NCBI RefSeq assembly: GCF_003018255.1
Contig: NZ_CP027440.1
DNA: 64,000 nucleotides
From: Escherichia coli
GTDB lineage: Bacteria; Pseudomonadota; Gammaproteobacteria; Enterobacterales; Enterobacteriaceae
Strand: one strand, 5' to 3'
Made by a program: the position numbers and the translations under genes. The notes beneath the pieces were generated by a model. The model saw only the letters and a program-made list of their open reading frames with translations. It ran no database searches and was not told the DNA's origin. Of this stretch, positions 51,079 to 52,943 are shown one piece after another; the stretch's first letter is position 1, and every line of letters begins with the position of its first letter.

Positions 51079-51266
51079 TGACCATCAGCGATATCATTGA
51101 AATTATTGTCGTTTGCGCACTGATATTTTTCCCGCTGGGCTATCTGGCGCGGCACTCTTTGCGACGCATTCGCGACACCTTACGTTTGTTCTTTGCTAAA
51201 CCTCGTTATGTTAAACCGGCCGGGACGTTACGCCGCACGGAAAAAGCCAGGGCAACCAAAAAATGA
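51075..51266 (+). CDS. bcsF: Small membrane protein BcsF
   Basis: 63 aa with a single transmembrane helix; overlaps the bcsE stop and the bcsG start. Confidence 0.85.
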
Positions 51267-52943
51267 CTCAATTTACGCAAAATACCGCCATGCCTTCTTC
51301 CCTCTGGCAATACTGGCGCGGCCTTTCCGGCTGGAACTTCTATTTTCTGGTTAAGTTCGGCCTGTTGTGGGCGGGATATCTTAACTTCCATCCGCTCCTC
51401 AATCTGGTGTTTGCCGCGTTTCTGCTGATGCCCATTCCGCGCTACAGCCTGCATCGCTTGCGCCACTGGATTGCCCTGCCGATCGGCTTTGCTTTGTTCT
51501 GGCATGACACCTGGTTGCCTGGCCCGGAAAGCATAATGAGCCAGGGTTCGCAGGTGGCGGGGTTCAGTACCGATTATTTAATCGATCTTGTCACACGCTT
51601 TATTAACTGGCAGATGATTGGGGCCATTTTTGTTTTATTCGTGGCCTGGTTATTCCTGTCACAATGGATTCGCATTACCGTTTTTGTGGTTGCCATTCTG
51701 CTATGGCTGAACGTACTTACCCTGGCGGGACCAAGTTTCTCCTTGTGGCCAGCCGGTCAACCGACGACCACTGTAACAACGACGGGTGGTAACGCAGCGG
51801 CAACCGTTGCGGCGACGGGTGGCGCACCGGTAGTGGGTGATATACCCGCACAAACTGCACCGCCAACAACAGCAAACCTTAACGCCTGGCTGAATAATTT
51901 CTATAACGCGGAGGCGAAACGTAAATCGATCTTCCCGTCTTCGCTGCCCGCTGATGCTCAGCCATTTGAACTACTGGTGATTAATATCTGTTCGCTTTCC
52001 TGGTCGGATATTGAAGCCGCCGGATTAGATGTCGCATCCACTGTGGTCGCATTTCGATATTGAGTTCAAGAACTTTAACTCCGCCACCTCCTACAGTGGC
52101 CCGGCGGCGATCCGTTTACTGCGCGCCAGCTGCGGGCAGACTTCGCACACTAATCTGTATCAACCGGCAAATAACGACTGCTATCTGTTTGATAACCTGT
52201 CGAAACTGGGCTTTACCCAGCACCTGATGATGGGACATAACGGCCAGTTCGGTGGTTTTTTGAAGGAAGTTCGCGAAAATGGCGGCATGCAGAGCGAATT
52301 GATGGATCAAACAAATCTGCCGGTTATTTTGCTGGGCTTTGATGGTTCGCCGGTTTATGACGATACCGCCGTGCTTAACCGTTGGCTGGACGTTACCGAA
52401 AAAGATAAAAACAGCCGTAGTGCCACGTTCTACAACACGCTTCCACTGCATGACGGCAACCATTATCCGGGCGTCAGCAAAACAGCGGATTACAAAGCGC
52501 GGGCGCAAAAATTCTTTGATGAACTGGACGCCTTCTTTACTGAACTGGAGAAATCGGGTCGTAAAGTGATGGTGGTCGTGGTGCCGGAACACGGCGGCGC
52601 GCTGAAGGGCGACAGAATGCAGGTATCTGGCCTACGTGATATCCCTAGCCCGTCTATCACAGACGTCCCCGTTGGGGTGAAATTCTTCGGCATGAAGGCA
52701 CCACATCAGGGGGCACCGATTGTCATCGACCAACCGAGCAGCTTCCTGGCTATCTCCGATCTGGTGGTTCGCGTTCTTGATGGCAAGATTTTCTCCGAAG
52801 ACAATGTTGACTGGAAAAAACTCACCAGTGGGTTGCCACAAACAGCACCGGTCTCCGAGAACTCAAATGCAGTAGTTATTCAATACCAGGATAAACCGTA
52901 CGTTCGCCTGAACGGCGGCGACTGGGTGCCTTACCCGCAATAA
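51263..52943 (+). pseudogene. bcsG: bcsG (cellulose phosphoethanolamine transferase) interrupted by a +1 frameshift near 52026-52031
   Basis: Two ORFs, 51263..52063 (266 aa, transmembrane N-domain) and 52029..52943 (304 aa, alkaline-phosphatase-like domain), lie in different frames. Together minus one nucleotide they span 1680 nt, i.e. 559 aa plus stop, the length I recall for intact BcsG. A TAG sits immediately 5' of the second ORF's ATG. Confidence 0.7.

Follow-up and report, generated by a model that had tools for sequence, protein, structure and literature searches.

The locus described here raises the question whether bcsG, which encodes the enzyme that adds phosphoethanolamine (pEtN) to cellulose, still specifies a working transferase in an Escherichia coli isolate in which the gene is spread over two reading frames. 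We analysed it within a window of 64,000 nucleotides, the whole stretch of DNA considered in this study. The initial annotation had reported two ORFs in different frames with a TAG directly before the ATG of the second, and had proposed that removal of one nucleotide within 52026-52031 restores a BcsG of 559 aa. These observations held: the coordinates of both ORFs and their overlap of 35 nt were confirmed (Table 1), the junction reads GGATTAGATGTCG, with the TAG immediately 5' of the ORF2 ATG and in the ORF2 frame, and deleting A52027 yielded a protein of 559 aa that is identical to WP_000191567.1. In an alignment with the intact bcsG of strain ChlosBP-23-1, A52027 is the single extra base (GGATT-GATG in ChlosBP-23-1, GGATTAGATG in the window; GGATTGATG is the uninserted form of the site), and bcsG measures 1,681 nt in the window versus 1,680 nt in annotated intact genes. 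One other difference separates the two genes, a substitution that we call synonymous because the A52027-deleted protein is identical to WP_000191567.1.

Table 1. Features of the cellulose (bcs) locus and of the lesion in bcsG, with positions in the window.
Feature	Position	Strand	Description
bcsRQABZC	38734..49234	-	Divergent cellulose synthase operon; bcsC, bcsZ, bcsB, bcsA, bcsQ and bcsR full-length, without stops or gaps
bcsE	49507-51078	+	Intact; full-length, gap-free and stop-free against the JNE23-011 protein; annotation from reference loci L001 (ChlosBP-23-1) and L002
bcsF	51075-51266	+	Intact; full-length, gap-free and stop-free against the JNE23-011 protein; annotation from L001 and L002
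bcsG	51263..52943	+	Last gene of the bcsEFG operon; one-base insertion, apparent pseudogene; 99.9% identical to annotated intact bcsG
ORF1	51263..52063	+	266 aa; native BcsG residues 1-255, then 11 out-of-frame residues (DVASTVVAFRY) and a TGA stop
Inserted A	52027	+	Leu255 codon changed from TTG to TTA; everything downstream shifted to the +1 frame
ORF2	52029..52943	+	304 aa; BcsG residues 256-559, first codon is native Met256
Two-frame overlap	52029..52063	+	35 nt shared by ORF1 and ORF2, from the codon lists of both frames

ORF1 and ORF2 are two halves of bcsG and not a chance pair of ORFs. In profile matches to NCBIfam TIGR03368 (BcsG), ORF1 covered positions 2-215 (E 2e-85) and ORF2 positions 216-518 of 518 (E 1e-153), PF11658 is on record for the products of both, and tblastn with the BcsG of JNE23-011 placed query residues 256-559 at 52029-52940 without a gap. 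ORF1 alone scored 287 bits against TIGR03368, under the curated cut-off of 410. Compared with intact E. coli BcsG (YhjU; PDB 9b8v, 9fmv, 6pcz; TIGR03368), the A52027-deleted protein can be aligned along its entire 559 residues and departs from structure 9b8v at seven of them, whereas the gene as it stands cannot yield a full-length protein: no single open frame covers both the membrane domain and a complete catalytic domain, as the native frame breaks after codon 255 and runs into a stop 11 codons further on.

Published descriptions of BcsG give five N-terminal transmembrane (TM) helices and, after a linker of about 30-45 residues, an alkaline-phosphatase-like domain in the periplasm (PMC11379886, PMC8892547). 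A hydropathy scan of the ORF1 product located hydrophobic segments at residues 40-58 and 109-161, and ORF1 keeps the five-TM membrane domain, the Thr/Ala/Pro-rich linker and about 50 residues at the start of the catalytic domain. The frameshift had initially been placed between the membrane and catalytic domains; crystallised soluble domains of BcsG start at residue 163 (6pcz) or 185 (5ojh), so the break, which follows Leu255, is about 50 residues inside the folded periplasmic catalytic domain. All active-site residues and the cysteines of the Cys290-Cys306 disulfide are encoded, but across the two ORFs: the Zn ligand Cys243 is in ORF1 (51989-51991), while the nucleophile Ser278 (52095-52097), Cys290, Cys306 and the Zn ligands Glu442 and His443 (52587-52592) are in ORF2. 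The frame thus changes between the first strand of the fold, where Cys243 is located, and Ser278. Cys243, Ser278, the Cys290-Cys306 disulfide and Glu442/His443 are reported to be essential for function or functionally important (PMC8892547). Translation of bcsG would proceed through native residues 1-255 and 11 wrong residues to the stop, and the resulting 266-aa product would keep the membrane domain, the linker and Cys243 and would lack Ser278, the disulfide and Glu442/His443. Because these elements are absent, we infer, from residue roles established by others, that pEtN transferase activity is lost.

We consider it highly probable that A52027 is a genuine, private and recent one-base insertion that abolishes the pEtN transferase of BcsG. 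Single-base indels are the classic assembly error, and a base added during sequencing or assembly, with an intact bcsG in the DNA of the organism, would agree with the privacy of the allele, which neither the 4,334 matched complete genomes nor a near-identical clone-mate (draft GCA_040411395.1, locus L015) carry. Several observations speak against such an artefact. Homopolymers are where most indel errors arise; A52027 is flanked by T and G, and this T-A-G context is not a homopolymer. When the sequence was read by eye, the insertion site showed no repeat or homopolymer that would explain the extra A by slippage or a quasi-palindrome. The contig from an independent Logan assembly of run SRR8931299 is 100% identical to window positions 48263-52999 (4,737 nt), extra A included; this contig perhaps derives from the same reads as the assembly of the window, and its agreement excludes an assembler error and not a mutation in the sequenced culture. 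The clone-mate L015 is identical to the window over positions 39507-61079 (21,572 bases), except that it is without A52027, and because the two differ by this base alone over that length, the window is accurate here and the insertion very young. Against JNE23-011, the closest complete genome (99.4-99.6% identity), the window has seven indels in 64 kb, of which six are intergenic, in the gadW-gadX and gadX-gadA spacers, leaving A52027 as the only coding indel, and the 49 other CDS checked in the window were full-length, gap-free and stop-free. Since no other difference from the clone-mate and no other broken gene was found, the window assembly is not error-prone, and since there are no other coding indels relative to JNE23-011 or the clone-mate, we rate an assembly error as highly improbable.

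The insertion was sought with a 61-mer centred on the site, which matched 4,334 of 5,426 complete RefSeq E. coli genomes; none of the 4,334 carried it, each match showing a one-base gap. The mutated 27-mer had no match in the metagenome contigs scanned, and an exact-protein look-up traced the 266-aa product to a single sample, that of the Logan contig of SRR8931299. As far as these searches reached, the allele appears to be private to one isolate. Intact genes with the same sequence and frame at this site, a possibility that the initial annotation had raised against a lesion, were found neither among the 4,334 genomes nor in clone-mate L015. The window bcsG bears a single disabling change that is missing from its closest relatives and shows no further decay, and the repaired protein equals a common intact allele. 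The gene therefore looks like a recent loss-of-function pseudogene, and the mutation appears to be extremely young.

The insertion may have been selected, may be neutral or may derive from culture. A real mutation that arose during laboratory storage or culture before sequencing would be uninformative on the natural population. Strains often lose matrix production when they are domesticated, and such an origin would fit both the presence of the allele in one sample only and its extreme youth, as indicated by the absence of secondary changes in bcsG and by a clone-mate, L015, that differs by A52027 alone. However, no sequence feature separates a culture-derived insertion from one gained in a host or the environment, independent bcs lesions are plentiful in fresh clinical isolates, and a different bcsG deletion in a further clone-mate (L014, described below) suggests that the gene has been hit repeatedly in this lineage. 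An origin in culture is, on this evidence, quite unlikely.

A genuine insertion could still leave BcsG function in place if the two fragments complemented each other or if a +1 slip within the 35-nt overlap produced some full-length protein. ORF2 begins at a native in-frame ATG that overlaps the end of ORF1, and a split or reinitiated BcsG of two polypeptides had been suggested on these grounds. The Shine-Dalgarno pairing of this start is, however, weak (-3.3 kcal/mol, against a median of -5.6 for 44 genuine starts in the window); its energy ranks among the weakest third of the genuine starts, and one as good or better occurs at 33% of random internal ATGs (n = 278). A promoter scan found nothing promoter-like in the part of bcsG ahead of ORF2, and a hydropathy scan of ORF2 revealed no signal peptide, TM or other hydrophobic segment. 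Without a hydrophobic segment, an ORF2 product would remain cytoplasmic and so would not reach the periplasm, the compartment in which the catalytic domain acts. The bcsG halves do not show the combination of an own start and own targeting with a split at a domain boundary that would mark a split enzyme; here the split crosses a folded domain and separates the Zn ligands, and it is not conserved elsewhere. A working two-piece BcsG is very unlikely, and ORF2 is a leftover frame that starts at the native internal Met256.

The overlap is the only stretch in which a +1 slip would rejoin the frames. Reading its codons, we found only the pair TTT CGA (UUU-CGA), no homopolymer and no prfB-like CUU UGA. 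TTT CGA is a possible weak +1 slip site, at which tRNA-Phe might shift to pair with UUC. In E. coli, levels of 1-10% have been described for non-programmed suppression of frameshifts, for -1 events only (PMC10861913). A slipped product would nonetheless bear eight substituted residues (256-263; mixed-frame peptide ...AAGLDVASTVVAFDIEFK), and conservation of the frameshift across orthologues is absent, with none of the 4,334 matched complete genomes and not even clone-mate L015 carrying it. Because the frameshift is missing from every relative, this is not programmed recoding. Retained function by either route is therefore extremely improbable, and meaningful residual BcsG activity is hardly to be expected; were it real, by a slip at UUU-CGA or by complementation of residues 1-255 and 256-559, it would constitute a natural frameshift-tolerant or split transferase of the alkaline-phosphatase fold.

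bcsG is the sole lesion in the cellulose locus, whose layout is the usual one for E. coli, with bcsEFG divergent from bcsRQABZC (Table 1). bcsQ (window 48285-49034) is intact and encodes 250 aa identical to the JNE23-011 protein. Because bcsG closes its operon, we expect the lesion to have no polar consequences for the other bcs genes; the 3' neighbours of bcsG are convergently oriented ldr toxin genes. These form an array at 53033-54586 on the minus strand, with four tandem genes for 35-aa Ldr type I toxins that repeat with a 483-bp period and are ~96% identical to one another, versus one copy in ChlosBP-23-1. The Logan short-read contig stops just upstream of the first Ldr copy, and ORFs of 80-109 aa that recur in successive repeat units of the array are probably not genes. 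With respect to ancestry, bcsG is 99.9% identical to the alleles of ChlosBP-23-1, CU42ET-1 and CFIAFB20120266, while the 24 kb around it are closest (99.6%) to JNE23-011 and JNE112863, two strains that show four residue differences in BcsG; by these identities, the ancestry within the bcsG locus is apparently mosaic. Elsewhere in the window, the most divergent stretch relative to JNE23-011 is gadW-gadX-gadA (16945-19234), where the GadW protein is 96.3% identical. Five of the intergenic indels are in the gadX-gadA spacer and the sixth is in the gadW-gadX spacer, and the divergence of this stretch suggests a recombination patch.

Loss of pEtN transfer to cellulose would be the most likely outcome of the lesion, and here we agree with the initial annotation, which had predicted unmodified cellulose from a real lesion. 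In 13C solid-state NMR, pEtN gives signals at 41 and 63 ppm. Cellulose of a UTI89 ΔbcsG mutant is without the pEtN peaks in NMR spectra (PMC6685106). For Salmonella, the account of Sun et al. (2018) in PMC8892547 states that the N-terminal membrane domain of BcsG supports the integrity of BcsA and that the catalytic domain sets secretion efficiency. The membrane part retained in the window may likewise still support the cellulose synthase BcsA, both the stability of the fragment and its support of BcsA being drawn from this Salmonella work. With the remaining bcs locus intact and the BcsA-interacting membrane domain kept, unmodified and probably reduced cellulose would be expected, not complete loss, because in Salmonella the N-terminal domain supports BcsA and the catalytic domain sets secretion.

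The closest published parallel to this prediction is S. Typhimurium ST313 lineage II (D23580), in which a premature stop replaces codon 247 of bcsG (Singletary et al. 2016, reported in MacKenzie et al. 2019, PMC6611641). According to the same report, moving the D23580 allele into strain 14028 abolished colony (rdar) patterning and lowered calcofluor binding, and D23580 itself still makes measurable cellulose, which is credited to the retained N-terminal half of BcsG (PMC6611641). The two lesions affect the same gene and truncate it eight codons apart (247 versus 255), and both keep the membrane domain and Cys243 and lose Ser278, Glu442 and His443, with the other bcs genes present. They differ in that D23580 carries a nonsense G>A substitution, in Salmonella, that has become fixed throughout an epidemic lineage, whereas the window carries a one-base insertion, in E. 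coli, recorded from a single sample. By this analogy, cellulose of the isolate is probably unmodified and reduced, not abolished, as in D23580.

Lesions of this kind are well documented in E. coli. In ST95, 27 independent bcs loss-of-function mutations were reported from 339 of 613 genomes, among them a frameshift that hits BcsG at residue 418 and is shared by 26 strains of serotype O1:H7, and bcs-disrupting mutations occurred in 74 of 76 common STs and were linked to increased virulence (Nhu et al. 2024, PMC10881479). The supplementary tables of that study list BcsG W247* in the ST95 strain TUM18673 and 'truncated.bcsG' in many STs, and the ST95 lesions were interpreted as convergent loss of cellulose production or of pEtN modification (PMC10881479). 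The window allele resembles these natural E. coli frameshift and nonsense alleles of bcsG in that the bcs locus is otherwise recognisable; it differs from them in position and mutation, and the insertion after codon 255 was found in no other genome searched. The insertion is a new allele of a well-described kind and one more recurrent bcs loss in E. coli, Shigella and Salmonella.

Further truncations came to light through ORF2: at least 109 index blocks of a public collection contain a called gene with exactly its 304-aa sequence. It is called so widely because bcsG is interrupted by nonsense mutations ahead of Met256 in many other E. coli assemblies. Among the loci L005-L012 (bcsG at about 9236-10915 of each locus, equivalent to window 51263-52028), W247* occurred as TAG on two allele backgrounds (L005, L006 and L012 versus L011) and as TGA in L009, W209* was present in L010 and in L007, in which the bcsG region is also 33 bp shorter, and W129* was found in L008, where bcsQ is split as well. 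Of the 1,829 complete genomes that were matched, three (AVS0747, ECO20, ECO21) have W247* (TAG). Codon 247 is also the one affected in Salmonella ST313. A lesion downstream of Met256 was found in clone-mate L014 (GCA_043885025.1), which has an independent, frameshifting 62-bp bcsG deletion that removes Ser278 (window ~52082-52143, near position 5571-5581 of the locus in that assembly). L014 shares the BcsE allele of the window, which is recorded in 49 index blocks, and differs outside bcsG by one SNP (window 49059) over the 7.5 kb compared. This second lesion is a small hint that the gene may have been hit repeatedly in the lineage.

Such recurrence bears on whether the insertion is a selected separation-of-function allele, one that keeps BcsA support, loses pEtN transfer and alters host interaction as a pathoadaptation. 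The requirement of the BcsG N-terminal domain for BcsA integrity in Salmonella, the measurable cellulose of D23580 with its stop at codon 247, the independent E. coli stops at W247 (TAG on two backgrounds, and TGA), W209 and W129, the 62-bp deletion of L014 and the link between convergent bcs loss and virulence would all be in line with selection. On the other hand, a lone private allele carries no signal of selection, and the other truncations were found only upstream of Met256, an ascertainment bias of the ORF2-sequence look-up, which detects lesions upstream of that codon only. Trp codons also readily become stops, so that recurrence may be mutational. Because the look-up is biased and Trp codons offer the easiest route to stops, we read no selection into the truncation pattern, and we regard a selected origin of the insertion as unlikely.

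The recent one-base insertion in bcsG thus joins, as one further allele, the many convergent loss-of-function mutations already described in bcs genes, and it makes no open question newly testable. As E. coli and Salmonella bcsG truncations were already catalogued, the initial annotation gave the lesion more weight than it merits. For the isolate itself, the biofilm matrix is predicted to contain unmodified, probably reduced cellulose and to show weaker cohesion between curli and cellulose, and altered immune stimulation and virulence are also possible, as published work suggests.
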